A DNA stretch of 44,632 bases from a virus. Of this stretch, positions 14,401-28,322 are shown one piece after another. Numbering within the stretch: position 1 is the stretch's first letter; the number at the start of each line of letters is the position of its first letter. The stretch lies in UHGV virus genome UHGV-0179607. One strand, given 5' to 3'. The notes beneath the pieces are model-generated. The model did not search any database. It was not told the DNA's origin and was given only the letters and a program-made list of their open reading frames with translations. The position numbers were made by a program, and so were the translations under genes.

Positions 14401-14621
14401 TTTAGGCTCTCAATAAGGGTGGCTCGGGCGCTACGCGCGGTGTAAGAGTTGCACACGAAATGACAACGTCGGGTCATGACAAGCCAACCGGTGAGGTCAA
14501 GGCCCAGGATGTATTCGGGGCGAGACGCGCGCACCACACGATCGCGGCGTGGGTCGATGTTATAGTCTTTTTGCATTTGGTCTACGACCGCGTGGTTGCG
14601 GTCAACGATTAAGATATTCAC
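14397..14621 (-). CDS. hypothetical protein
   Basis: 74 aa; GTG start at 14621 preceded by AAGGAG at optimal spacing. Confidence 0.4.
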   Translation of the reverse strand: MNILIVDRNHAVVDQMQKDYNIDPRRDRVVRASRPEYILGLDLTGWLVMTRRCHFVCNSYTARSARATLIESLK

Positions 14622-15087
14622 GTAGTTCTCCTTCGCTCATTATTTCAATTTGTGCGCTGCCGACTGGCGGCGCTTCGTCAAATATTATTAATTGCTGACA
14701 CTTGTTATTGCTCGGCCCGACTTCACCGGTGACGGCGTGAATAAATCGGATACGCCAATCCAGAAGAATTATCAGGTTTGCAGTCTTCCTGGCCAGCTTC
14801 GCCCACTTCGTCGACGTGTCCTGATTCAGCAGCATGACAGTCCGGCGTCCGTGCGCTGCGCACTCGACCCACGGCAGCGGATCGGAATATGGCGGGTTGC
14901 ACCATTTCCACCCTTTCAACTCGGACCAGTCAGCATCAAGCGCGCTGTGCTCCGCAGTGAAGTAACGCGGTAGCAGGTGGTTGGTGTCGCTTGCCGCCAT
15001 ATCGTAACGGAATCGGTATTTCCGACGAAGCGGTTTAAATAAAGCTGGCGGCGTGCGCCAGCTATCTTTTTGTTCACTCTCCGTCAT
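14602..15087 (-). CDS. DNA N6-adenine methyltransferase (phage Dam-like)
   Basis: N-terminal WRTPPALF motif and catalytic CNPPYS (D/N-PPY) motif characteristic of phage Dam-type N6-adenine methyltransferases; start taken at ATG 15087 (ORF track begins at an upstream TTG). Confidence 0.7.
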   Translation of the reverse strand: MTESEQKDSWRTPPALFKPLRRKYRFRYDMAASDTNHLLPRYFTAEHSALDADWSELKGWKWCNPPYSDPLPWVECAAHGRRTVMLLNQDTSTKWAKLARKTANLIILLDWRIRFIHAVTGEVGPSNNKCQQLIIFDEAPPVGSAQIEIMSEGELREYLNR

Positions 15088-15538
15088 TCTGCGGGTCCAG
15101 TGCATACAGGGCAATTTTATCGCCGGTCTTGAGAATGCGTTGCACGCGCTTTGATTCCTCGAATCCCAGCGGTCTGTTGTCGGGGTAGTAGCTGCCGTTT
15201 GTGCCGTTACGCCACGCTATAAGCACCAAGTCTTTACGGTCGATCTTAGACTGGCGACCTTTCGGTCGTACGTACTCCTCCGCACGTTTGCAATGCTCGC
15301 GCAGACCTTCGGCAGTGATCCGGTTTAACGCCACGCTGGTGGTGTATCCGGTGCGCTGCATAATCCCCATCAACTCGAAAAGCAGTTCGAAGCGCTCCTC
15401 TAGCTCCTGGCGCACTTTCTTCTCGCCTTCATATAGCGCCTGGTTGGTGTCCGCCACCGCGTTCGCCCGTTCGGCCTGTTCACGGGCTTCGAGGCATTGC
15501 GCGGCCCAGTATGCTTTTTCTTCTTGTAAAATTTTCAT
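15074..15538 (-). CDS. hypothetical protein
   Basis: 154 aa, ATG 15538 with GGAG SD; charged, helical N-terminal half; no motif recognised. Confidence 0.45.
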   Translation of the reverse strand: MKILQEEKAYWAAQCLEAREQAERANAVADTNQALYEGEKKVRQELEERFELLFELMGIMQRTGYTTSVALNRITAEGLREHCKRAEEYVRPKGRQSKIDRKDLVLIAWRNGTNGSYYPDNRPLGFEESKRVQRILKTGDKIALYALDPQNDGE

Positions 15539-15862: not shown

Positions 15863-16186
15863 TTACGAATAAAAATTTGGGTCGCGCGCTACGTCTACCA
15901 GATACAGATTGCTGATTCGGTTGCCGTAGTGGCCTGGTGTGCGCTGGCGGCACACAACGGCGTAGCCTGGAGGAATTGTATTGCCAGTCTCAATAATCCA
16001 CGCCACGCGCGCGCCAGATAGCGTCTTGCCGTTGCACTCGATGCGCGTGCCACCATCGGCAGTGTTAAGGTTGCCGATCTTGCAGCCTGTGGACTTCAGG
16101 CGAATGACGCCGGTCTTGCTGTCGTAGGAAAAAAGCTGATTGGTCATTGCCACTGAAAAGTCGATGGCGTCGAATGCAGTATTCAT
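15863..16186 (-). CDS. hypothetical protein, possibly degenerate HNH-like
   Basis: 107 aa; pattern ...NGKTLSGARVAWIIETGNTIPPGYAVV...GNRISNLYLV resembles phage HNH_3-type endonuclease cores but lacks the canonical His; weak. Confidence 0.3.
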   Translation of the reverse strand: MNTAFDAIDFSVAMTNQLFSYDSKTGVIRLKSTGCKIGNLNTADGGTRIECNGKTLSGARVAWIIETGNTIPPGYAVVCRQRTPGHYGNRISNLYLVDVARDPNFYS

Positions 16187-16878
16187 TTTAAATTTTCCTC
16201 GTTAACCGCTATCGCGAAGCCGCGCGGGGTGAGCGACCTGATTAATTTTGTGCGGGCTGATTTGCCTCCGAGGCGACTATACTGCTTCGAGTACCCTTTT
16301 TCAACGAAAACAGGTTTCTTCTCTGGCATACGGAAGCCGTTGCCGGTCCATAAGCAGGTCAGCTTCGGATATGAATCGCGGGCGTTGATGTATTCCGGGA
16401 ATAACGGGTGCACGTCATCCTCCGGCAGATATCCGCCATACTCCCACGGATCAAACGAGTGGTCCGGCTTACGCCATTGAGTTGATAGCACGCTGCGCGG
16501 ATTCTCAATCATATATGGCACTTCGAAGAAGTCACCCAGGTAAGCGGCGATCTTCGCGGTGCGCACCGCCTTAAGCTGAAAGGCTGGGTCTTTTGCACGC
16601 TTGCGCGGGAAAGCTGGCGCACCGCTCACCGCCAGATCCGTACACGGCGGGAATGCGTAGATGATATCCGGCGCGCCGAAATCGCCATTCATCGCGCGGT
16701 CTACAAAGTCCAGATCGATAAACTCATTACGATAGCGGATCCCGCGACCATAAATCCGGTAGTCCAGGTAAGACCCATGATCGGCTTCGGAGTAGTTGAA
16801 GCAATAACACTTATGCCCCATCTCGGCAGCACGCTCAATCATCAAGCCGCTGCCGTCAAATAATGACCAGATAATCAT
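16183..16878 (-). CDS. putative DNA cytosine-5 methyltransferase-like protein
   Basis: LFDGSG (motif I-like), FPPCTDLAVSG (PC motif IV-like) and IENPRSV (ENV motif VI-like); only 231 aa, so a short or atypical member; ATGA overlap with helicase gene. Confidence 0.45.
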   Translation of the reverse strand: MIIWSLFDGSGLMIERAAEMGHKCYCFNYSEADHGSYLDYRIYGRGIRYRNEFIDLDFVDRAMNGDFGAPDIIYAFPPCTDLAVSGAPAFPRKRAKDPAFQLKAVRTAKIAAYLGDFFEVPYMIENPRSVLSTQWRKPDHSFDPWEYGGYLPEDDVHPLFPEYINARDSYPKLTCLWTGNGFRMPEKKPVFVEKGYSKQYSRLGGKSARTKLIRSLTPRGFAIAVNEENLK

Positions 16879-19250: not shown

Positions 19251-21542
19251 TTATTTCCTGTATCTGTACATAATGTCGCCTTCCGCGGCAAGCGGGAAGC
19301 CTTTCGCCCAAACAGGCAGGTCGCACATCAGCGCGCATAGCTCCTCGGTCGTGTAGTCGTCAGTATCCGGAACTTCGGTGATCAATTCATCGTGCACTGA
19401 CAGGACGATCTCATAGCCAGCAGCCTCAACGCCGGGCATGGACCACGCGAGGATATCGCGACACAGCGCCTGTACGATGTTTTCCGTCAGTTTGCCGCCG
19501 TAGGTATACTGGAAGCCCCACTGGCGCGTCGTCTGATTCTCGCCCTGGTATTTGATGCGGGTGCTGGTGCGCTTCTTGCCGGTGTCTTCGTCGATCTCGG
19601 TCGTGACAGACAGCGCGATGCCGGGGTAGCTCATGATGCGCCCTGACGGCAACTCAATTTTAAGCCACCACCCCGCCGCGTTCGGGTCGTCGCGCTCCTC
19701 GTCGAAGGTCGGGTCATGCTTCGCCTTCGTTCGAACAATTTTGAGCGCTTTCTTACCATCCGGGCGAACGTTCGCGCCAGCCCAGTATGCTTTGCCCGGA
19801 TTGCGGATTGCGCACAACACCGCGTCCTCAAGCTCTGCCCAAAAGGCTACCGTCTTCGGGTGGGCCTCACGCCACATACGTTTGATCGCGTCACACGTCA
19901 ACCACACGTTTTTCGGCAGTATGTAAGTTGGGCGCTCGTCTTTCTTGCCAGGCTTCGGCGGGCGCTTAGCTTCGTTAATGCGGGCGTATTCATAGCCCCG
20001 TTTCGCCGCTGCCCAAATATGATCGGGGAATGTGCCTTTCATGACGTCCGCCATCGCATACAGGTCGAGGCCCAGGTTTTTCGCGAACTGCAAGAATGCC
20101 GCCACGCCACCACCATAGCCCAGGCCCAATTCGCACGCCTTACCAATCTGGCGTAAGTCTTTGCGGTTGGCTTTGATGTATTCCGGGTCGAGGCCAAACA
20201 TCTTACCGGCAGTTTCACAATAGATATCGCGACCCGCCCTAAACACCATTAGCGCGGTTTTCTCACCAGCGATCCAGGCAAGCCCGCGACCTTCCACGTT
20301 GGAATAGTCCGCTACGACAAACTTCTTGCCCTTAGCCGGAATAATGCACCCGCGAACGGTCGAGGCCGTTAACTTCGATATGTCATACGCCCAGTGTGCG
20401 GTCCCGCGTAACAGGGAGTTGATGCCGTTGGTAAGCATGTGCGACCGCACCCAAAACGCGACGTCGCTCTCGCCTTCACGGCGCTTAATCTTCCCTTCGT
20501 GGTCGTCGCTATACTCGCCGCGTGCCAGGTTTTGCGGCTGGAAGCCTTTGCCAGCCCAGCGTAGCGTGCGTTTCGCCCCGCCATACTGGAGACACCCACG
20601 ACGGCGACCATCTGCGGATAAGCCATTAACGAGCGGATTGTACTTAGTCGATGCCGTTGATGACGCACCGAGGCGCATCTCTATAAGCACTTTGCCCTCG
20701 TCGGGGAAGTCCGGGTCTTCCAGCAGGTCGTTAAGTGTGGATTTCTGCGCGTTGTGGATTGTGAACGCAGGCGCGAGGTCGCGCAGCGCTGGCAGGAAGT
20801 CATTGCCTGTCAGCTTACCGCCGAAGCGCTCCCATGCTTCTTCCTTCAATTCTTCCTTATGCGCCTGCACCGCTTTGATCGCGGCGTTCGCCAGGTCAAC
20901 GTCCACATAGAAGCCGCGGTCGTTAATAATCTGGTCAATAAGCAGGATTTCATCTTCCTTCGGCGTGTTACCCCAGTCCGGTATGCGCCAGTAGACTTCA
21001 CGCATGGCAACAATATCCAGCGCGGCGTAGCGCAGGAATTTATCCCACTCCTCGGGGTGCGTCTCGCGCGTATAGCGGCGGATTTTGTAGGTCTTAGGGG
21101 TTGGCTTACAGAATCGTTTGATCAGCGCCTTGCCAGCCTTATCCTTCGCGTGCTCTGCATCAACACCCAACACCTGGCACTGCATATCGAGGCTACCCGG
21201 CAGCGCGTGGCGAAAGGCCATAATCATGGTATCTTCGATCTGGCCTACCGGCAGGTCAATGCCCCACTTCTCGCGAATAACCAGGCGGTCAAACAGGAGG
21301 CCGTTAGCCATAACGATTTTTGCTTTCTTGCGGGATACCCGGCGGAGCGCCTTGCGCAGTTCACGCGGCATTGTGGGGGATTCGGTGCAATCCCATGTCT
21401 GCACGCGGCCCTCGTCGATGGCGTATGTGCAAATCATAATCTCGGTAGTTGGGTGTTCCGCGTAGGCGTATGCGCCCACTTTCTTCAGATCCACCCCGCT
21501 AAATGTCTCGGTATCGAGAAAAAGTCGTTCGAAGTCTTTCAT
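19251..21542 (-). CDS. DNA polymerase, family A, with N-terminal 3'-5' exonuclease domain
   Basis: Exo I-like FLDTETFS; Pol A motif A DYSNVEGR; motif B RQIGKACELGLGYGGG; motif C LSVHDELITEV; 763 aa. Confidence 0.9.
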   Translation of the reverse strand: MKDFERLFLDTETFSGVDLKKVGAYAYAEHPTTEIMICTYAIDEGRVQTWDCTESPTMPRELRKALRRVSRKKAKIVMANGLLFDRLVIREKWGIDLPVGQIEDTMIMAFRHALPGSLDMQCQVLGVDAEHAKDKAGKALIKRFCKPTPKTYKIRRYTRETHPEEWDKFLRYAALDIVAMREVYWRIPDWGNTPKEDEILLIDQIINDRGFYVDVDLANAAIKAVQAHKEELKEEAWERFGGKLTGNDFLPALRDLAPAFTIHNAQKSTLNDLLEDPDFPDEGKVLIEMRLGASSTASTKYNPLVNGLSADGRRRGCLQYGGAKRTLRWAGKGFQPQNLARGEYSDDHEGKIKRREGESDVAFWVRSHMLTNGINSLLRGTAHWAYDISKLTASTVRGCIIPAKGKKFVVADYSNVEGRGLAWIAGEKTALMVFRAGRDIYCETAGKMFGLDPEYIKANRKDLRQIGKACELGLGYGGGVAAFLQFAKNLGLDLYAMADVMKGTFPDHIWAAAKRGYEYARINEAKRPPKPGKKDERPTYILPKNVWLTCDAIKRMWREAHPKTVAFWAELEDAVLCAIRNPGKAYWAGANVRPDGKKALKIVRTKAKHDPTFDEERDDPNAAGWWLKIELPSGRIMSYPGIALSVTTEIDEDTGKKRTSTRIKYQGENQTTRQWGFQYTYGGKLTENIVQALCRDILAWSMPGVEAAGYEIVLSVHDELITEVPDTDDYTTEELCALMCDLPVWAKGFPLAAEGDIMYRYRK

Positions 21543-21767: not shown

Positions 21768-22547
21768 TTAACGGCGGCGACGTTTGCGTGGCGCTTCGTC
21801 TTCGTCGTCGTCCTCATCTTCGTCATCGCGTGGCTTACGACGTTTGCGAGGTTTTTCATCTTCCTCATCGTCGTCGTCATCGCGGCGCTTGGACTTTTTG
21901 GACTTACGCGGCTTATCATCTTCATCGTCATCACGACGTTTTGACTTCTTAGCCTTGCGCGGTGCTTCGTCTTCGTCGTCGTTGTCCAGGTCTTCATCGG
22001 AGCAAGAAGACCCGCCACCGCCGAAGGCTTCACCGTCATCCCGGAAGCGTAAACCCAGCAAGCCAGCGCCGAGTCCCTTGCCGTTGGTGTTGTTCCACGC
22101 CCAAATATCCAGGGACACGTTGCAATAGCAACCGGAATAGATTTCCTGGCCTTCGATCTCGTCGCCTTCTACGGTAAGACCTTGTTCAGTCTGCTTCTCG
22201 CCGAGTGACGTTTGGATGTTTGGCTGTTTGAACGATTTGGCGTTGATGTACAACATGCCTTCGAACTCTTCGGTTACTTCATCGCGCTCGTCGCCGTCGC
22301 GAACTGCGCATTCCTTAGAATCCTGGGCGTAGTGGCGGTCCATCCACTTATCGGCATTCTTCTCGGATTTCAGCTTGTCGGTGAGCACTGCTCGCGCTGC
22401 CGCTTCCACTTTGTCCACCTGCGGATCTTCTTTATCAAGAAGAATCACGGCGCGGTATGCCGGTTTTTGTCCATCCTGTTTAGGGGTATCACGTTCCCAA
22501 ATTTTCAGGAAACATACGCGCACATTTTTCAGGTTGACTTTAGCCAT
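21768..22547 (-). CDS. single-stranded DNA-binding protein-like (T7 gp2.5-type) with long charged repeat tail
   Basis: N-terminus MAKVNLKNVRVCFLKIWE and FGGGG followed by an acidic stretch resemble gp2.5-like phage SSBs; C-terminal ~90 aa are tandem acidic/basic repeats (DDEDE.PRK.KKSKRRDDD); GAGGA SD at ATG 22547. Confidence 0.45.
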   Translation of the reverse strand: MAKVNLKNVRVCFLKIWERDTPKQDGQKPAYRAVILLDKEDPQVDKVEAAARAVLTDKLKSEKNADKWMDRHYAQDSKECAVRDGDERDEVTEEFEGMLYINAKSFKQPNIQTSLGEKQTEQGLTVEGDEIEGQEIYSGCYCNVSLDIWAWNNTNGKGLGAGLLGLRFRDDGEAFGGGGSSCSDEDLDNDDEDEAPRKAKKSKRRDDDEDDKPRKSKKSKRRDDDDDEEDEKPRKRRKPRDDEDEDDDEDEAPRKRRRR

Positions 22548-22637
22548 TTTCCAATTCCTCATTTTCACATGTATCGGGGTTATTGGAAGCCACCCCGTTC
22601 GGCTTGGTTGCTAATCTACTTGGTTGCGCCTAAGCGG

Positions 22638-22880
22638 TCAAGCATTTTCATTAAAAAGATTTCGGGTAACGTAGTTGGTGGCGTTCTCGATCCAGCTTAA
22701 CGGCGGTCGGTCGATGTTCTTCTCCACCCAGCCGACGGCAGCGTCGCTATAGCCGTCGTCAAGCCAGCGGGTCGGATGGCGAATCATCCACGCCACCATT
22801 AGCACGCCTTGCACGCAATGCAGGATAAAGCCCAGCGCGCCGAGCAAAAACATCAATAAGATTGCAAATACTTTATTCAT
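22638..22880 (-). CDS. small membrane protein (hypothetical)
   Basis: 80 aa from ATG 22880 with GAGGA SD; two hydrophobic segments (AILLMFLLGALGFIL, GVLMVAWMI). Confidence 0.4.
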   Translation of the reverse strand: MNKVFAILLMFLLGALGFILHCVQGVLMVAWMIRHPTRWLDDGYSDAAVGWVEKNIDRPPLSWIENATNYVTRNLFNENA

Positions 22881-24306
22881 CACTTAAGTCCTCGTCGGTA
22901 GCTTCGGACCACGCGGGGCGCGGGTCGTCGATTGGGGCTAATACCGGTTTAGCCGGTGCGCGCGTGATTTTATCACACAGCTTCGCCCACACTTTTGGTT
23001 TTTCGTCCTTCAATACCTTCTCGGCATCCGTAGGGCTGAGCAATGTTTCTTTGTACATCACATCGCGCTTGATCCGGGCCTTCGTGAAGATTTCAATAAC
23101 TTCGCTCTCGTCCGCCCACTTACGGATCCCTTCCTTACCGGCAACCATCTTGAGGCCCAGCGATTCACCATCACCCGCCATTACAGCCTTAAATACCGCG
23201 GACTCGATCGCTTTGATGTGCTGGCGCATTGCGTCCAGACCCTCATAAGCCTTGCGCAGTTCCGCAGCGCTCATAGCGCCAGGGGCCGCTTCTTTCTTAC
23301 CGCGCTTCGCACGTCGTGCCGCCTTCCTGGCTTCGCGGGCCATATTGCGGTCATGGTTGGCGCATTCTTCCTCTGTCGCAATACTCACGTCGTCGCCCAG
23401 GTCTTCGTCGGTTGCCGTTGGGGGTGTCATCGTGTCGATTGCGGCCTTAGCGCGGGCACTACACTGATCCGCAAATCGGCACCACTGGCACGCATCAACG
23501 CTGGGGCGGAAGTCTGCGCGGGTAAGCCCCTTCTTGCCTCGGGAATACGCCTCCAGTGCGGCAATAGCGCGCTTGGATGCAAACTTCGCGAATATCTCCA
23601 GAGCTTCTACCGAAATATCCCACTCCGACGCCCCACCGCAATACGGCTGGAAGATAACCAGGCGAACGGTCGTAATGTCGTACATAGTTTGCAGTTTGCG
23701 CAGCAGGCCGAGCGCGTACAACATAAGCTGTTTGTTCTCTTTCGCCTCGACCTTATGCCGCCCGGTCTTCAGGTCGCCAACAATCAGCATGTACGTTCCA
23801 TCGGTCTTTTTCATGACCATGACCATATCGGCAGTACCGAACGTTTTAATCCTGTTGCCGTCGATCTCGTAGCCTGAGTGAAGGACGCGGGTCAGATCGG
23901 CGCGCATCTCAAGCTGGATAAACTCCGCCACTTCGATGAGCGGTCGCCAGTGGTCGATGTACGCGTCGCACTGTTTCACCATGTCGTCGTTGACCAGTAC
24001 GCCGCCTTTCGGTGCTTTCGGGTGTGCCTTTACTGGCCCCTTGCCTTCGTTCTCGACGTAGCACCCTTTATACGTCTTCGCGGTTATCAGCTTCTCACCG
24101 GCGATAATGCGGTTTAGCACCACCTCCGATACGGTGTGCATACTCGTACCGTTAATCGCGGCTTGCCCGGATTCGTTCGGGATATCTTTTTCTACCACCA
24201 GGGCGGCGGGGCAACCCATCCATTTTTTAGCACCGGATGGCCCGAGTAATGAGTGTTCCGTATTGCTGCCGGATTGCGTCTTACGTTTTGGTTTAATCGC
24301 CATCAT
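22873..24306 (-). CDS. PD-(D/E)XK family exonuclease, Cas4/RecB-like with C-terminal Cys cluster
   Basis: Nuclease core GDLKTG...EAKENKQLMLYALGL and C-terminal CQWCRFADQC cysteine cluster typical of Cas4/RecB-type Fe-S nucleases; 477 aa. Confidence 0.6.
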   Translation of the reverse strand: MMAIKPKRKTQSGSNTEHSLLGPSGAKKWMGCPAALVVEKDIPNESGQAAINGTSMHTVSEVVLNRIIAGEKLITAKTYKGCYVENEGKGPVKAHPKAPKGGVLVNDDMVKQCDAYIDHWRPLIEVAEFIQLEMRADLTRVLHSGYEIDGNRIKTFGTADMVMVMKKTDGTYMLIVGDLKTGRHKVEAKENKQLMLYALGLLRKLQTMYDITTVRLVIFQPYCGGASEWDISVEALEIFAKFASKRAIAALEAYSRGKKGLTRADFRPSVDACQWCRFADQCSARAKAAIDTMTPPTATDEDLGDDVSIATEEECANHDRNMAREARKAARRAKRGKKEAAPGAMSAAELRKAYEGLDAMRQHIKAIESAVFKAVMAGDGESLGLKMVAGKEGIRKWADESEVIEIFTKARIKRDVMYKETLLSPTDAEKVLKDEKPKVWAKLCDKITRAPAKPVLAPIDDPRPAWSEATDEDLSDE

Positions 24307-24491
24307 TCCACCCGTGTAAATTGAGCAATGTAATAGTCATGTTCAACATTGGCCCGCTTAGCGGCATTGTTCATGGTAGCCGCCAGTCCTCGGGCTTGCA
24401 TCCAGCAGCAATTCCAGTTTTGATTCATAACAATTTCCGGTTGCTCGTCGCCGGTAATACGGCAACGAAATAAAACAAAGAATATAGCCAT
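24303..24491 (-). CDS. hypothetical protein
   Basis: 62 aa; ATG at 24491; overlaps the exonuclease start region. Confidence 0.3.
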   Translation of the reverse strand: MAIFFVLFRCRITGDEQPEIVMNQNWNCCWMQARGLAATMNNAAKRANVEHDYYIAQFTRVE

Positions 24492-24743
24492 TTATTTTGT
24501 CTCCCAGCGGTCAATTGTTTTTGCTTCGGATGCAACCGCGAAGCGAACATATTCCAGATTGGAATCCGCCCAAATATAAAAGTCGGGGTTAGTAAAGGTG
24601 GTGCGCTTAATTTGCGCGGGTGTGTTACGGCGTTTATCTATTACGGCAACGCGGGATTGAAAGCTGCCGATGCGTTCGAATAGCCAATAGTACGGGCGCT
24701 GGTCGCGGGAATCCACCGCCTCGATTAGCGTGAAGCGTGCCAT
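24492..24743 (-). CDS. hypothetical protein
   Basis: 83 aa; GAGGA SD upstream of ATG 24743. Confidence 0.4.
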   Translation of the reverse strand: MARFTLIEAVDSRDQRPYYWLFERIGSFQSRVAVIDKRRNTPAQIKRTTFTNPDFYIWADSNLEYVRFAVASEAKTIDRWETK

Positions 24744-24754
24744 TGTCTCGTCCT

Positions 24755-24783
24755 CTAAAAATAGGCCCGCAGATTAGCGGGCC
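24755..24783 (-). terminator. minus-strand attenuator/terminator after the first early gene
   Basis: Perfect 7-bp stem GGCCCGC / GCGGGCC, loop AGATTA, followed on the minus strand by TATTTTT. Confidence 0.45.
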
Positions 24784-24791
24784 GGATAATA

Positions 24792-25310
24792 TTAATCTTC
24801 CAGTTCGAAATAAGTTTCGACGATTTCTTTAAGATCTTTGTGGAAGTCTTCGACGTCGTCATCTTCCAGCTTGGCGATTGATTTGATCTCGAACGATTCC
24901 AGCAGGTCGTCGAATTCGTCGTTGGCATCGTCGTCGTCACCACCAGCGATAATAGCGGCATACTGTTTGATCTCGTCGCGCATCTCTGCCAGCGGATCGG
25001 CATCTTTCTTGCCTTTGCCTTTCGCCGGTGCTTTTTTACCCTTCGCCGGTTTTTCGTCTTCGGCTTCTTCATCGTCGTCATCTTCTACGACTTCTTTTTT
25101 GGCCTTACCTTTAGCCGGTGCTTTTTTGGTTTTCGCCGGTTTTTCGTCTTCGGTTTCATCGTCGTCATCTTCTACGACTTCTTTTTTGGCCTTAGACGGC
25201 TTCTTGTCTCCCGGCTTACCAACGGCAGCGCCAACGGTTTCATAATGCTTAGCGATGGTTTCCAGTGCTACTACGCCGCGAGTAATCAGGTTTACGATTT
25301 GTTCAAACAT
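24792..25310 (-). CDS. acidic repeat protein, first gene of the leftward early operon
   Basis: 172 aa; two tandem ~20-aa repeats KKEVVEDDDDE..EDEKPAK.KKAPAKGK and a strongly acidic C-terminus; encoded by ~60-bp DNA tandem repeats at about 25030-25200; GGAG SD. Confidence 0.5.
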   Translation of the reverse strand: MFEQIVNLITRGVVALETIAKHYETVGAAVGKPGDKKPSKAKKEVVEDDDDETEDEKPAKTKKAPAKGKAKKEVVEDDDDEEAEDEKPAKGKKAPAKGKGKKDADPLAEMRDEIKQYAAIIAGGDDDDANDEFDDLLESFEIKSIAKLEDDDVEDFHKDLKEIVETYFELED

Positions 25311-25509
25311 GTTTTATATCTCCGATTGGTTAAGTTTAGGTGTCGACAATTAACTTCGTCGGTGGCCTTAACATATTGCCTGGTTACGCGTTCTCCCGTT
25401 CGGGTAGTGGACCAGGTTATATAATCACGGTTGGGAATCCTGACACTTCGATCCGGCCCCTGCGTTGCCCCTCTCCAGTTTGCGTCCTGCATCCTGTCGA
25501 CGGAGGGAA

Positions 25510-25538
25510 TATTAGATTGGTTGCAGAAGGGAGTCAAC
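25510..25538 (-). promoter_or_regulatory. leftward early promoter (sigma70-like)
   Basis: Minus strand TTGACT - 17 bp - TAATAT; the spacer carries GCAACCAA; about 190 nt upstream of the first early gene. Confidence 0.45.
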
Positions 25539-25548
25539 AACTAATTTC

Positions 25549-25587
25549 AAAAAAAAAAAAAGCGCCGAGGCAAAATGCAACGGCGCT
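25549..25587 (-). terminator. minus-strand rho-independent terminator with 13-nt U-tract
   Basis: Stem GCGCCG / CGGCGC with 13-nt loop, followed on the minus strand by 13 T; upstream of the leftward promoter, so possibly the 3' end of a short leftward transcript. Confidence 0.4.
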
Positions 25588-25617
25588 AACCAATAAGAGA
25601 CAATGAGACGGGAATTA

Positions 25618-25645
25618 TTATTACACGCGTGCGCGCCCGTTTCAA
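25618..25645 (-). promoter_or_regulatory. candidate minus-strand promoter for a short transcript ending at the 25549-25587 terminator
   Basis: Minus strand TTGAAA - 16 bp - TAATAA; would give a ~60-nt RNA. Confidence 0.25.
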
Positions 25646-25656
25646 TATCCAAAGGA

Positions 25657-25685
25657 TTTGACACCGTGCAGTTTTGGGTGTAGTT
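25657..25685 (+). promoter_or_regulatory. rightward early promoter (sigma70-like)
   Basis: Consensus -35 TTGACA, 17-bp spacer, -10 TAGTTT, about 35 nt upstream of the HTH gene. Confidence 0.5.
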
Positions 25686-25717
25686 TCGTTGGTCATTAAC
25701 CAACTGAGGGCAGAGCA

Positions 25718-26047
25718 ATGAATGTAAACGACGCAATCGAAATGTTAACGAAGACTGTTAGCAGTGAAACAAGCCGGTCATGGGCTTATACCGATGCCGT
25801 TGGGGCGGTGCTGTTTGAGGTCGAGCGCCTGCGCAGTGTAGAAAAAGAATTACGCGCCAGGCTGGAATTGCTCAACGGTACGGCGGCGAGCAAGCTGCAA
25901 AAACACAATGAGGAAATGGAAGAATACAAAAAGCAGGTTATCCGTTTGCGCGCCGAGGGAAAGTCATGGGCGATGATCGCGGAGTTGACAGGGATTAACC
26001 AGAGCACCGTGCGCTCCTGGGTACGCAATAACAAAACTTCGAAGTAA
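25718..26047 (+). CDS. helix-turn-helix DNA-binding protein
   Basis: 109 aa; C-terminal KSWAMIAELTGINQSTVRSWV is a typical HTH; first gene of the rightward operon. Confidence 0.5.
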   Translation: MNVNDAIEMLTKTVSSETSRSWAYTDAVGAVLFEVERLRSVEKELRARLELLNGTAASKLQKHNEEMEEYKKQVIRLRAEGKSWAMIAELTGINQSTVRSWVRNNKTSK

Positions 26048-26057
26048 GGCCACGGCA

Positions 26058-28322
26058 ATGAGCTTAATTAAATTCGCTGTTACAAGACCCGCTAAAAAAG
26101 GCGAAAAAGCCAGGGCGGAAAACTTCCAGATGACCACCGATGAATTTTTCGAATTTATCAAAGATGCGAAAGAAATCTCCTCGGTGCATATCAACAAGAC
26201 GGAAGATAAAGCCGAGTATGCGCGCCGCAAGCGTAAGGCCGACGGCATCGTGGCGTATACCAGTGACGGATTGCGTCGTAAGACCAGTGCGGTGGACCGC
26301 TCGATCCTGTTCTTCGATATTGACCGTACCGACACCCGCACCCTACGCCGCTGCCGTAAGGCGTTCATTGACGCGGGGCTGGAACACGTATTTCACACCA
26401 CAACCGGCGACCGTCACCCACTGAAAGGCGGCACGCGTTGCGCTCGATTCCTGGTGCTCACTGACAAGCCTGTACCGGCTGAAGACCTGGGCCGCGTCCA
26501 GTATGCACTATTACACCAACTGGGTCTGTCAGATGTGGACTTCGACGATTGCACGAAAGACACAAACCGCCTGATGTACCTGCCACACCAGCAGTCTGTT
26601 ATTAAGTGCCACTACGGCAAGCGCGCCCGCGTCCGTCGTCTGCTTCGCCTGGCGGATAAGTTGGGCGCGGAAAAAGAGGAAGTACGCCGCGAGCTTACCC
26701 AGGGCGACGACGCAGTGGCAGACGGCATTCTGGACTGGTGCTTCCAGGCAGGATTCGAGGAGTTATCTTCCGGGCGGGGCTATGAAGTGCCGTGCCCTAA
26801 CGAACATCTACACAGCGGCGAAGGGTCCACCGCTATTATGGTTAAGGACGGCGAGATCCGTTTCAAGTGCATGCACACAGGCAACGAGTGTTGCTCGGAA
26901 CTGAATAGACACCAGCACCTGGCGCTGCGTCTTATCGGGATCCCGGACCACCTGAACGTCGAGCCACACAATATGTCCCGTAAGCAAATCGCCGCCATCC
27001 TTCCGGGGCTGGACGACGAGGAAGTCGAATCCTTATATGAACATATTGTTGATGCGGTTGGCGACGGCGAAGAATACGGCGTGTGCACCGATGCGGATCT
27101 GGATAACGAGCCGGTTGCGCTGTTCAGTAAGCACGACCCGATTATCGAGGGGTTGATTAACTTTAAATCGACCTGGTACATGGCGGGTGAGTCGAATATA
27201 GGTAAGTCTTTCTACGTGCTGGGCCAGATGGGCGCGGTTGCTGCCGGTATTCCGTTTGGCGGTGCGAAGGTCGTCCAGTCTCATTGCTTCTATTTCGACG
27301 CGGAAGGTGGCGAAGCCTCTAACCAGCGTAAAGAAGCATTGCAGATTAAATATGAGCACGACCTGGACAAGCTGCACATTATCGATCTGCAGTCACGCGG
27401 CTGGGATATCACCAGCAAATCGGGCTTGCGCGAAGTTATCAGCTTTATCAACCGCACCGCTAACGGCGAACCGGTTGGCCTGGTGGCGTTCGACTCACTC
27501 AACCAGACTGTTGCGTTGCGGTCCGCTGATGCTAAACCGTTCGACGAGAACAACGCCAGCGATATGGGTGAAGTGGTCAAAGCGCTGAAGGCCATCGCGG
27601 AAAATACAGGTGGTAGTGCGGGCGTCATCCACCACCCGGCTAAAGGTGCAAACGGCAGCAGAACGCCACGCGGGTCCGGCGCGCTGCATGGTGCTGTCGA
27701 TTCTGCGTTCTTCCTGGAACAGCCGGACGACAACCAGCCCGGACAATTGAACCTGTATCACGAAAAGTCACGTAACGGCATCAAGCAAGCGCCGCGCGGC
27801 TTCGTCCTGCTCAAGTGCAAGGTGAAGGTGGATCTCCGCAAGTCAGAAGCGTTCGAGGCGCACCAGTCCACCAGCACCGGGCCAGACTTCGGCGACGTGG
27901 TTGCCGGATGGGACGTCAAGCCGATTGCCTCCACGCCACGCGACGAGACTCTCTACCTCGTACCGGTTGCCCTGGCACCTTTCGCTATTGAACAGGCGAA
28001 GGCGGCGGGCAAGGCCGCGGTTAAGGAAGAGAACACCGCCGGACCGCGCAACGAAAAAGAGAAAGTGCTTTATGCGGCACTGGAAAAACTGATGGAAGAT
28101 AACCCGGACCATACTGGATTCAGTAAATCGGCAATCGTCCGCCAGGCGGGACTCGCAAAAGGGGGCACTTCGACGAAGGCAATCGACGATATGGTGGAGC
28201 GCGGGGTAATAGGTTTTTATACAGATCCGCACACCGGGGCCATCTATGGGTCTTCTAATTTGGTCATCAAATCGGATATCCCTATCACGCTTTCCGCGAC
28301 CGATGACGATTTAAAAGATTAA
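26058..28322 (+). CDS. primase-polymerase (AEP-like) / P-loop replicative helicase fusion protein
   Basis: N-terminal ILFFDIDRTD resembles the AEP/prim-pol DxD motif; central Cys/His cluster (CPNEHLHSG...CMHTGNECC); P-loop MAGESNIGKSF of RecA/DnaB-like (AAA_25-type) helicases; 754 aa. Confidence 0.55.
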   Translation: MSLIKFAVTRPAKKGEKARAENFQMTTDEFFEFIKDAKEISSVHINKTEDKAEYARRKRKADGIVAYTSDGLRRKTSAVDRSILFFDIDRTDTRTLRRCRKAFIDAGLEHVFHTTTGDRHPLKGGTRCARFLVLTDKPVPAEDLGRVQYALLHQLGLSDVDFDDCTKDTNRLMYLPHQQSVIKCHYGKRARVRRLLRLADKLGAEKEEVRRELTQGDDAVADGILDWCFQAGFEELSSGRGYEVPCPNEHLHSGEGSTAIMVKDGEIRFKCMHTGNECCSELNRHQHLALRLIGIPDHLNVEPHNMSRKQIAAILPGLDDEEVESLYEHIVDAVGDGEEYGVCTDADLDNEPVALFSKHDPIIEGLINFKSTWYMAGESNIGKSFYVLGQMGAVAAGIPFGGAKVVQSHCFYFDAEGGEASNQRKEALQIKYEHDLDKLHIIDLQSRGWDITSKSGLREVISFINRTANGEPVGLVAFDSLNQTVALRSADAKPFDENNASDMGEVVKALKAIAENTGGSAGVIHHPAKGANGSRTPRGSGALHGAVDSAFFLEQPDDNQPGQLNLYHEKSRNGIKQAPRGFVLLKCKVKVDLRKSEAFEAHQSTSTGPDFGDVVAGWDVKPIASTPRDETLYLVPVALAPFAIEQAKAAGKAAVKEENTAGPRNEKEKVLYAALEKLMEDNPDHTGFSKSAIVRQAGLAKGGTSTKAIDDMVERGVIGFYTDPHTGAIYGSSNLVIKSDIPITLSATDDDLKD

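Follow-up and report, generated by a model that had tools for sequence, protein, structure and literature searches.

The replication module formed by a DUF2800 nuclease, a gp2.5-like protein that binds single-stranded DNA (SSB) and a family A DNA polymerase (PolA) is found in 1,400 or more sequenced phages, and its parts are sensed by bacterial defences: retron IX responds to the nuclease, Retron-Eco8 to the SSB and Borvo to the polymerase. The nuclease Bas14_0045 (B14T), an AdnA/RecB-like enzyme, is active and sets off type IX retrons when it cuts multicopy single-stranded DNA (msDNA); truncations of it are tolerated in escaper phages. The DUF2800 nuclease encoded at 22873-24306 on the minus strand of the virus genome UHGV-0179607 was assigned to the same protein family. 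This genome, 44,632 nucleotides long, is the stretch of DNA analysed here and is referred to as the window. Upstream of its nuclease gene lies a gene for a 172-residue acidic protein whose direct homologues are phrog_3127, the hypothetical proteins of Dhillonvirus and the '13.88 kDa late protein' of Jersey/Kagunavirus phages, a family already catalogued and uncharacterised. A preliminary description of the window had taken the protein for a DNA mimic that blocks restriction. We tentatively favour another reading, in which it is an abundant, non-enzymatic accessory of the replication-recombination module, most likely a flexible adaptor. What is new is that the family, together with a wider domain superfamily, constantly accompanies the DUF2800 nuclease in phages of different phyla and is highly expressed.

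The acidic gene and its genomic neighbourhood

The acidic gene, the module genes and the open reading frames (ORFs) between them are arranged as follows.
24792-25310, minus strand: coding sequence of the 172-residue protein, phrog_3127 family (function unknown), called as an ORF with an ATG start
24492-24743, minus strand: 83-residue ORF, phrog_4965 by PHROG match, function unknown
24303-24491, minus strand: 62-residue ORF, phrog_9934 by PHROG match, function unknown
22873-24306, minus strand: DUF2800 PD-(D/E)XK resection-type nuclease (Pfam E 2e-66), the invariant downstream neighbour by synteny
21768-22568, minus strand: Enc34/gp2.5-like single-stranded DNA-binding and annealing protein (Pfam E 1e-31; synteny)
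19251-21542, minus strand: PolA (synteny scan)
25718-26047, plus strand: divergent helix-turn-helix (HTH) protein (Pfam search)
26058-28322, plus strand: primase-helicase of the AAA_25 type (annotation and synteny)

Synteny was scanned with purpose-built hidden Markov models (HMMs) on 41 family-bearing sequences (40 loci and the window). The DUF2800 nuclease came next on the same strand in 39/39 loci having downstream DNA, at a distance of 42 to ~1,270 bp, and was usually followed by SSB and PolA. The primase-helicase is divergent in Dhillonvirus-type genomes and lies upstream on the same strand in those of the Jersey/Kagunavirus type; in the latter, therefore, the acidic gene is not first in its operon. 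At locus L009, where the genes before it encode AAA_24 and DEAD helicases, it likewise abuts DUF2800. The conserved trait is the position just upstream of DUF2800, not the promoter-proximal one. At L020 (IMGVR_UViG_3300045988_026856) the gene order is unlike that of the window, the primase-helicase being co-directional.

In the window itself the minus-strand series starts with a promoter, the 172-residue ORF, a hairpin and the 83- and 62-residue ORFs, and continues with the DUF2800 nuclease, the SSB-annealase and PolA. Beyond PolA come genes for a VRR-NUC protein, an SNF2 helicase, a C5-methyltransferase (MTase)-like protein, an HNH protein, a 154-residue ORF and Dam. The HTH protein and the primase-helicase are transcribed divergently from the acidic gene.

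Phage records with a DUF2800 nuclease number 1,400 and cover many host phyla; eight distant phages were sampled with host diversity as the criterion, being picked before their upstream genes were viewed. In 8/8 of these loci the ORF just upstream of DUF2800 has the same layout of a helix, a low-complexity segment and a helical domain. An HMM of the C-terminal domain alone (C-domain), run against the 653 ORFs of the eight phages, gave as its top three matches ORFs lying immediately upstream of DUF2800, in Bacillus phage Carmen17, whose ORF has three tandem domains (E 2e-10), in Streptococcus phage Javan29 (2e-4) and in APSE-2 (8e-4). Two families without an assigned function, phrog_408 and phrog_38276, link the Staphylococcus and Chi-like versions to these remote homologues. 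The versions from phages of Gram-positive hosts are not acidic, with a C-domain net charge of ~0 to -3 by manual count. The C-domain was also seen in two or three tandem copies on one chain, in Carmen17 gp29 (L048 2064-2984), P0121 and P0123, which suggests that multivalency matters for function.

This gene context bears on a role in host takeover or transcription, in which the protein would bind host RNA polymerase (RNAP), H-NS or a similar target in the manner of T7 gp2/gp5.5 or T4 AsiA. The protein is small, acidic and helical, its gene in this genus is the first after a promoter of host type, and three family members give weak, non-significant Pfam Sigma70_ner matches, all of which would suit such a factor. 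However, the gene is linked to nuclease and polymerase genes and not to promoters or regulators, it is conserved over hosts that differ in RNAP and nucleoid proteins, and a significant match to any such factor was not found. We consider this role improbable.

The sole profile matched by the window protein was phrog_3127, of unknown function (E 2.9e-53; residues 1-172 aligned to positions 1-178 of the 178 in the profile). Homologues in a large protein database numbered 166 and were 115-239 residues long; 65 cluster representatives at 50% identity were obtained from 1.84 billion proteins searched. Pfam, NCBIfam and PADLOC returned nothing significant, only sub-threshold low-complexity matches such as BUD22 and DUF6669. 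The best match among all PDB chains, by phmmer and profile search, was ribosome-recycling factor at E 0.08, and fold searches gave generic helical bundles only. PDB, Pfam, NCBIfam and the fold searches showed nothing similar in sequence or fold to Ocr, ArdA, Arn, Gam, gp5.9 or Abc2.

Over positions 24400-25700 the window matches 176 phage records, almost all of them Dhillonvirus, and is 98.4% identical in nucleotides to Escherichia phage phiEco273. Dhillonviruses, to which the window belongs, are HK578/SO-1-like virulent siphophages of E. coli. The acidic gene was found by tblastn in 155 Dhillonvirus records, and 156 records carry a nuclease that is at least 80% identical; on this comparison of sequences it belongs to the core genes. 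Another 484 records, for the most part of Jersey/Kagunavirus-like Salmonella and Escherichia phages, carry a family gene, and a Foldseek search of viral models found relatives in Edwardsiella phage eiAU and in Salmonella phages St162 and MB78 (Q9T1Z8). Many of the 484 bear the label '13.88 kDa late protein', which comes from MB78; this is a name transferred between annotations, and a search of the literature on MB78 and '13.88 kDa' found no functional paper behind it. Other labels on such proteins are 'prohead core protein', 'TolA' and 'lipoprotein'. Some database entries (P0005, P0048, P0068, P0070 and P0074) are 207-239 residues long owing to an upstream extension that starts MQDANWRG...; in the corresponding region of the window (25292-25540, minus strand) this extension is not coding, because a 2-nucleotide indel before the ATG shifts the frame, and it was rejected here as an annotation artefact.

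Protein architecture and charge

A structure prediction, suggested in the preliminary description, was made with AlphaFold (AF2) on 40 diverse sequences; an earlier model from 23 close sequences, with a predicted local distance difference test (pLDDT) score of 45, was discarded. The prediction divides the protein into an N-terminal helix (N-helix), a disordered linker and a three-helix C-domain, encoded as follows.
25230-25310, minus strand: conserved N-terminal amphipathic helix, residues 1-27 (AF2 helix 2-27, pLDDT 71-78)
24996-25229, minus strand: disordered, charge-segregated polyampholyte linker, residues 28-105 (pLDDT <50)
25003-25194, no strand assigned: tandem repeat in the linker, 90 nucleotides (30 residues) in frame, 2.2 copies (Tandem Repeats Finder)
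24795-24995, minus strand: conserved acidic three-helix C-terminal domain, residues 106-172 (AF2, pLDDT >90)

The window protein shows both the family layout of N-helix, charged linker and three-helix C-domain and the family position upstream of DUF2800. In the N-helix, L8, R11, V13, A15, E17 and A20 are near-invariant among the 40 diverse members, and the predicted helices of the C-domain span residues 106-123, 127-139 and 150-168. In five Dhillonviruses the N-helix had a ratio of non-synonymous to synonymous polymorphism (pN/pS) of 0, and the C-domain one of 0.046. The acidic ORF with an Asp/Glu-rich C-terminus, as first described, is borne out by computation: the pI is 4.47, Asp and Glu number 52 against 30 Lys and Arg, and the final 70 residues have a net charge of -21. 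The net charge of the C-domain is -19 in the window, and its median across the HMM-detectable family is -14 (range -4 to -20).

An acidic C-domain throughout the HMM-detectable family would be expected of a DNA-mimicking plug, by which a Gam/gp5.9-like protein might inhibit the host end-nuclease (RecBCD/AddAB), or another host DNA-binding protein, and leave phage ends to phage enzymes. The gene always stands beside a recombination nuclease, as do gam with bet-exo in lambda and 5.9 with gene 6 in T7; the abundance of the protein suits a stoichiometric inhibitor, and another RecBCD inhibitor is not annotated in these genomes. The lack of similarity to Gam, gp5.9 or Abc2 counts against this view, as does the fact that the most conserved part of the protein is the N-helix, which is not acidic. 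In addition, phages of Firmicutes and of an aphid symbiont, where the end-processing enzymes are different, have the same domain in this slot, near neutral in their case, and an inhibitor of this type is a poor fit with a slot conserved in hosts without RecBCD. Inhibition of a host nuclease is therefore, in our judgement, unlikely.

The linker of the window protein (residues 28-105) contains 24 acidic and 22 basic residues and has a charge-segregation z of 8.2; z exceeds 2 in 34/38 family linkers. Over 93 Dhillonvirus-type variants the linker is 32-96 residues long with a net charge near zero (median -1), and its three length classes correspond to 0, 1 and 2 acidic repeat units. Three variants, P0087 (122 residues), P0091 (124 residues) and P0098 (115 residues), have no acidic repeat and retain the basic patch beside the C-domain. 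K/R-G-K/R motifs were observed 50 times in the linkers against 8.1 expected, a count drawn from related, non-independent sequences. Canonical AT-hook cores, such as that in KRGRPAK, are found only in some relatives (P0106, P0119, P0178 and Sano gp74); the core R-G-R-P is absent from the window protein, which has PAKGK/KKAPAKGK motifs instead.

Such a linker could belong to an HMGA-like DNA organiser, whose basic blocks bind DNA and whose acidic parts modulate, or to a phase-separating polyampholyte that concentrates replication proteins. The strong charge segregation, the recurrence above shuffles of KRGRPAK, RGRGRP, TRGK and TRTRK motifs, the survival of the basic patch in the shortest variants and the abundance of the protein alongside SSB all agree with this idea. 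But the Dhillonvirus linker is without the arginine-type AT-hook core and carries K-rich PAKGK motifs only, some members have a linker of just 22-29 residues, and the motif counts suffer from the relatedness of the sequences. A DNA organiser or condensate former is, with the nuclease inhibitor, one of the two main rivals of the adaptor, but we judge it unlikely.

The preliminary description had also reported two acidic repeats. The 90-nucleotide in-frame repeat is present, as a single array with 87% matches and a score of 287 that corresponds to KKEVVEDDDDE..EDEKPAK.KKAPAKGK; its acidity did not survive the count, for the repeat-bearing residues 31-102 hold 22 acidic and 22 basic residues, a net charge of 0, in a segment predicted to be disordered. 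The array is annotated as a repeat_region in phages welsh, bob and jat, and its copy number is 0, 1 or 2 among relatives, complete-length phage contigs included. The 90-bp repeats might instead act as DNA, as iterons or an origin inside the gene (compare lambda O), with the protein repeat as a by-product. Their location between divergent replication operons would allow this, and origins within linker-coding parts of replication genes are known. The variation from 0 to 1 or 2 units in complete-length phage contigs and the blocky charge pattern of other lineages, which have no DNA repeats, make a function at the DNA level hardly credible.

Expression signals and protein abundance

The sequences flanking the acidic gene contain the following candidate signals.
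25509-25537, minus strand: sigma-70-like promoter TTGACT-17-TAATAT, with a T13 run 5' of it (consensus scan)
25311-25508, minus strand: 5' leader of the acidic gene, ~190 nucleotides, between promoter and ATG
24755-24783, minus strand: GC-rich hairpin and U-tract, attenuator or 3'-stabiliser (-17.2 kcal/mol, z -2.9)

The hairpin, which the preliminary description had called terminator-like and placed right after the gene, indeed starts 9 nucleotides past the stop codon. It reads GGCCCGC-UAAUCU-GCGGGCC followed by UAUUUUU (24783-24764), with a 7-bp all-GC stem. When post-gene hairpins were defined by a folding energy of -12 kcal/mol or lower and a start 5-20 nucleotides past the stop codon, a GC-rich hairpin was found directly 3' of the family gene in 30/34 non-redundant loci. 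These hairpins represent at least nine unrelated sequences, usually with 3-5 U after them. Hairpins were likewise found 3' of the SSB gene in 26/28 loci and 3' of the DUF2800 gene in 0/31. In several Dhillonviruses an additional ORF of 37 residues separates the acidic gene from the hairpin (L001 9911-10024; L002 3919-4032); this ORF is absent from the window.

Proteomic data from phage EE09 bear on abundance. EE09 CDS56 (EE09_56), the orthologue of the 172-residue protein, is among just four phage proteins that mass spectrometry (MS) picked up in infected cells at 25 min, and virion lysates did not show it (PMC10673088). The SSB-like CDS61 is also among the four (PMC10673088). The high, separately tuned expression proposed in the preliminary description agrees with this detection and with the recurrent post-gene hairpin, and the combined hairpin and MS pattern supports placing the acidic protein beside the stoichiometric SSB rather than among the enzymes. 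The two hairpin-flagged genes, for the acidic protein and SSB, encode 2/4 phage proteins in the EE09 infected-cell proteome.

On the upstream side, the promoter TTGACT-17-TAATAT was recovered 198 nucleotides before the ATG, and a GGAG lies 10 nucleotides 5' of the ATG. The consensus scan overall performed at chance level (5 sites against 3.4 +/- 2.0 in shuffles). The operon promoter site is kept in four other Dhillonviruses, with both hexamers intact in welsh, PTXU06 and SM_S22. Folding of the whole 5' leader revealed no unusual structure (z -0.6). The leader contains a stem, CCUGGU...ACCAGG, at 25379-25415 on the minus strand, whose local fold is unexceptional (z -1.4); the two arms have changed places in welsh, PTXU06 and SM_S22 (CCAGG...CCTGG), a compensatory double change that retains pairing, and each arm is a Dcm (CCWGG) site. 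An Rfam search of the leader, the hairpin and the intergenic region gave no significant match.

A further element abuts the -35 of the operon promoter on its upstream side (25549-25645, minus strand) and is conserved in four Dhillonviruses. It has a better promoter-like site, TTGAAA-17-TG-AATAAT, with 10/12 matches, and ~30 nucleotides past this site a terminator-like hairpin, GCGCCG...CGGCGC, with a U13 run (-16.4 kcal/mol, z -3.5). The element has no Rfam match and could be a 50-60-nucleotide small RNA, an insulator or an UP element.

Candidate functions and known systems

An Ocr-type DNA mimic would be made first and would bind type I or other restriction enzymes, or BREX, instead of DNA. 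The pI, the net charge of -19 to -21 in the C-domain region, the place of the gene first behind the promoter in Dhillonviruses and the abundance of the protein are what such a mimic would show. However, the repeat region is neutral and disordered and is missing from natural variants of 115-124 residues, the searches showed no resemblance to Ocr, ArdA or Arn in sequence or fold, the gene is not promoter-proximal in Jersey-type relatives, and the homologous domains of Gram-positive phages are not acidic. Published efficiencies of plating (EOP) also bear on the question, as the BASEL Dhillonviruses Bas14, Bas15 and Bas16 all carry the acidic gene.
EcoRI (type II): Bas14 1e-2 to 3e-2; Bas15 7e-5 to 3e-4; Bas16 4e-4 to 2.5e-3
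EcoRV (type II): Bas14 7e-7 or lower; Bas15 below detection; Bas16 below detection
EcoCFT_II (type III): Bas14 1e-4 to 7.5e-4; Bas15 ~4e-6 to 1e-5; Bas16 below detection
EcoP1_I (type III): Bas14 1e-3 to 3.5e-3; Bas15 5e-6 to 2e-4; Bas16 8e-6 to 7.5e-5
EcoCFT_I (type IB): Bas14 ~0.6 to 0.9; Bas15 0.006 to 0.014; Bas16 ~0.4 to 1.25

The three phages are thus restricted by EcoRI, EcoRV, EcoCFT_II and EcoP1_I (1e-2 to <1e-7), and Bas15 falls to ~1e-2 on the type IB system EcoCFT_I, for which it has a single site. For Bas15 the published EOP is ~0.8 on EcoKI against ~0.01 on EcoCFT_I. Type I sites number 0-1 each in Bas14 and Bas15, Bas14 having 0, and this low number suggests site avoidance rather than enzyme inhibition. 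The plating data, all from phages that carry the gene, argue against a broad restriction inhibitor. Given the neutral and dispensable repeats, the replication-module synteny, the absence of homology to mimics and the restriction of carrier phages, the proposed DNA mimic that blocks restriction is very improbable.

The part of the operon that touches modification and defence contains three genes.
14602-15114, minus strand: Dam methyltransferase (Pfam E 3e-36)
15074-15538, minus strand: 154-residue ORF, anti-Tmn homologue (77% identity to SM_S22 ORF35)
16183-16878, minus strand: 231-residue C5-MTase-like protein (98% identity to an annotated C-5 cytosine methylase; no Pfam match of its own)

Of the two methyltransferases that the preliminary description had placed in the same operon, Dam was confirmed by Pfam, and the C5-like assignment comes by the 98%-identity annotation only. 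The experimentally validated anti-defence protein of the operon is anti-Tmn of phage SM_S22 (ORF35; PMC11846954). The acidic protein was considered as anti-Tmn and rejected, anti-Tmn being SM_S22 CDS0035 and the acidic orthologue CDS0050; it was also rejected as Ksap1, a 74-residue protein encoded elsewhere. In SECphi18 escaper studies in the literature, the mutations are not in the acidic gene.

We return to the flexible adaptor as the tentatively preferred reading. From the architecture, conservation, synteny and abundance described above we infer a mechanism and candidate partners. The acidic protein would work in a module of primase-helicase, acidic protein, DUF2800 end-resection nuclease, gp2.5-Enc34-type SSB-annealase and PolA. 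Its N-helix (26 residues) is probably an oligomerisation or anchoring element, and the linker, in which basic blocks (K/R-G-K/R, AT-hook-like) alternate with acidic ones, may be a flexible tether tolerant of changes in length. The C-domain would dock on a partner in the module, the adjacent DUF2800 nuclease being the first candidate, while the N-helix, perhaps with the basic linker blocks, would hold the protein to a second partner or to DNA. The post-stop hairpin may raise the output of the acidic protein relative to the downstream enzymes. A phage-encoded partner is argued because the same domain and slot occur across hosts with differing end-processing enzymes.

Several points weigh against the adaptor. 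Linkage to a recombination nuclease is also typical of host-nuclease inhibitors, as in lambda gam-bet-exo and T7 5.9-6. The eight remote loci were hand-picked and not a random draw, and the ORFs of Sano, RcAqua and the Burkholderia phage match the family by layout only, with no significant score. Fusion to any module enzyme is absent among the 65 cluster representatives. A bolder form of the idea would make the protein a near-universal, stoichiometric subunit of the DUF2800-SSB-PolA module in tailed phages of Gram-negative and Gram-positive hosts. It would then be a multivalent tether or condensate-forming scaffold that gathers nuclease, annealase/SSB and polymerase on phage DNA ends, with the acidic enterobacterial version additionally mimicking DNA to gate partners. 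We think this extended version unlikely.

If the protein is a module-linked adaptor, it would complete the inventory of a replication system that is very common in phages, and defence systems would have a new candidate trigger or target. One of the most abundant products of the module is usually set aside as a hypothetical protein of low complexity, or carries a wrong label. For annotators the locus carries a warning that 'acidic, first in operon' is insufficient for calling an Ocr-like mimic.

Among characterised systems, the window protein resembles T7 Ocr (gp0.3), ArdA and Arn in being small, helical, acidic, abundant and, in this genus, first behind the promoter. It differs from them in that its acidity is, according to the model, held in a compact 65-residue bundle and its gene is linked to a replication module. 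With lambda Gam and T7 gp5.9 it shares the character of a small acidic protein encoded directly upstream of a phage resection nuclease; in contrast to them it shows no homology, its layout of helix, linker and bundle differs, and its family reaches hosts without RecBCD. The C-terminal three-helix domain of lambda Red-beta, which binds lambda Exo and SSB (PDB 6m9k_D), was also taken for comparison. Its sequence was verified against PDB 8tfu/6m9k, and hhalign of the family alignment gave a probability of 0.08%, so that no profile relationship was found. HMGA proteins are similar in their basic K/R-G-K/R(-P) motifs in a disordered region and their acidic C-terminus, and some family members contain KRGRPAK or RGRPKK. 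The window protein, however, has K-only motifs, together with a structured C-domain and a conserved N-helix, two features that HMGA does not have. Finally, by an analogy of architecture and without homology, the protein may be likened to ribosomal L7/L12 and to bacterial SSB with its core, linker and tip: a short anchoring or oligomerising element at the N-terminus is joined, through a hinge of low complexity and variable length, to an acidic module at the C-terminus, and the copy number is high.

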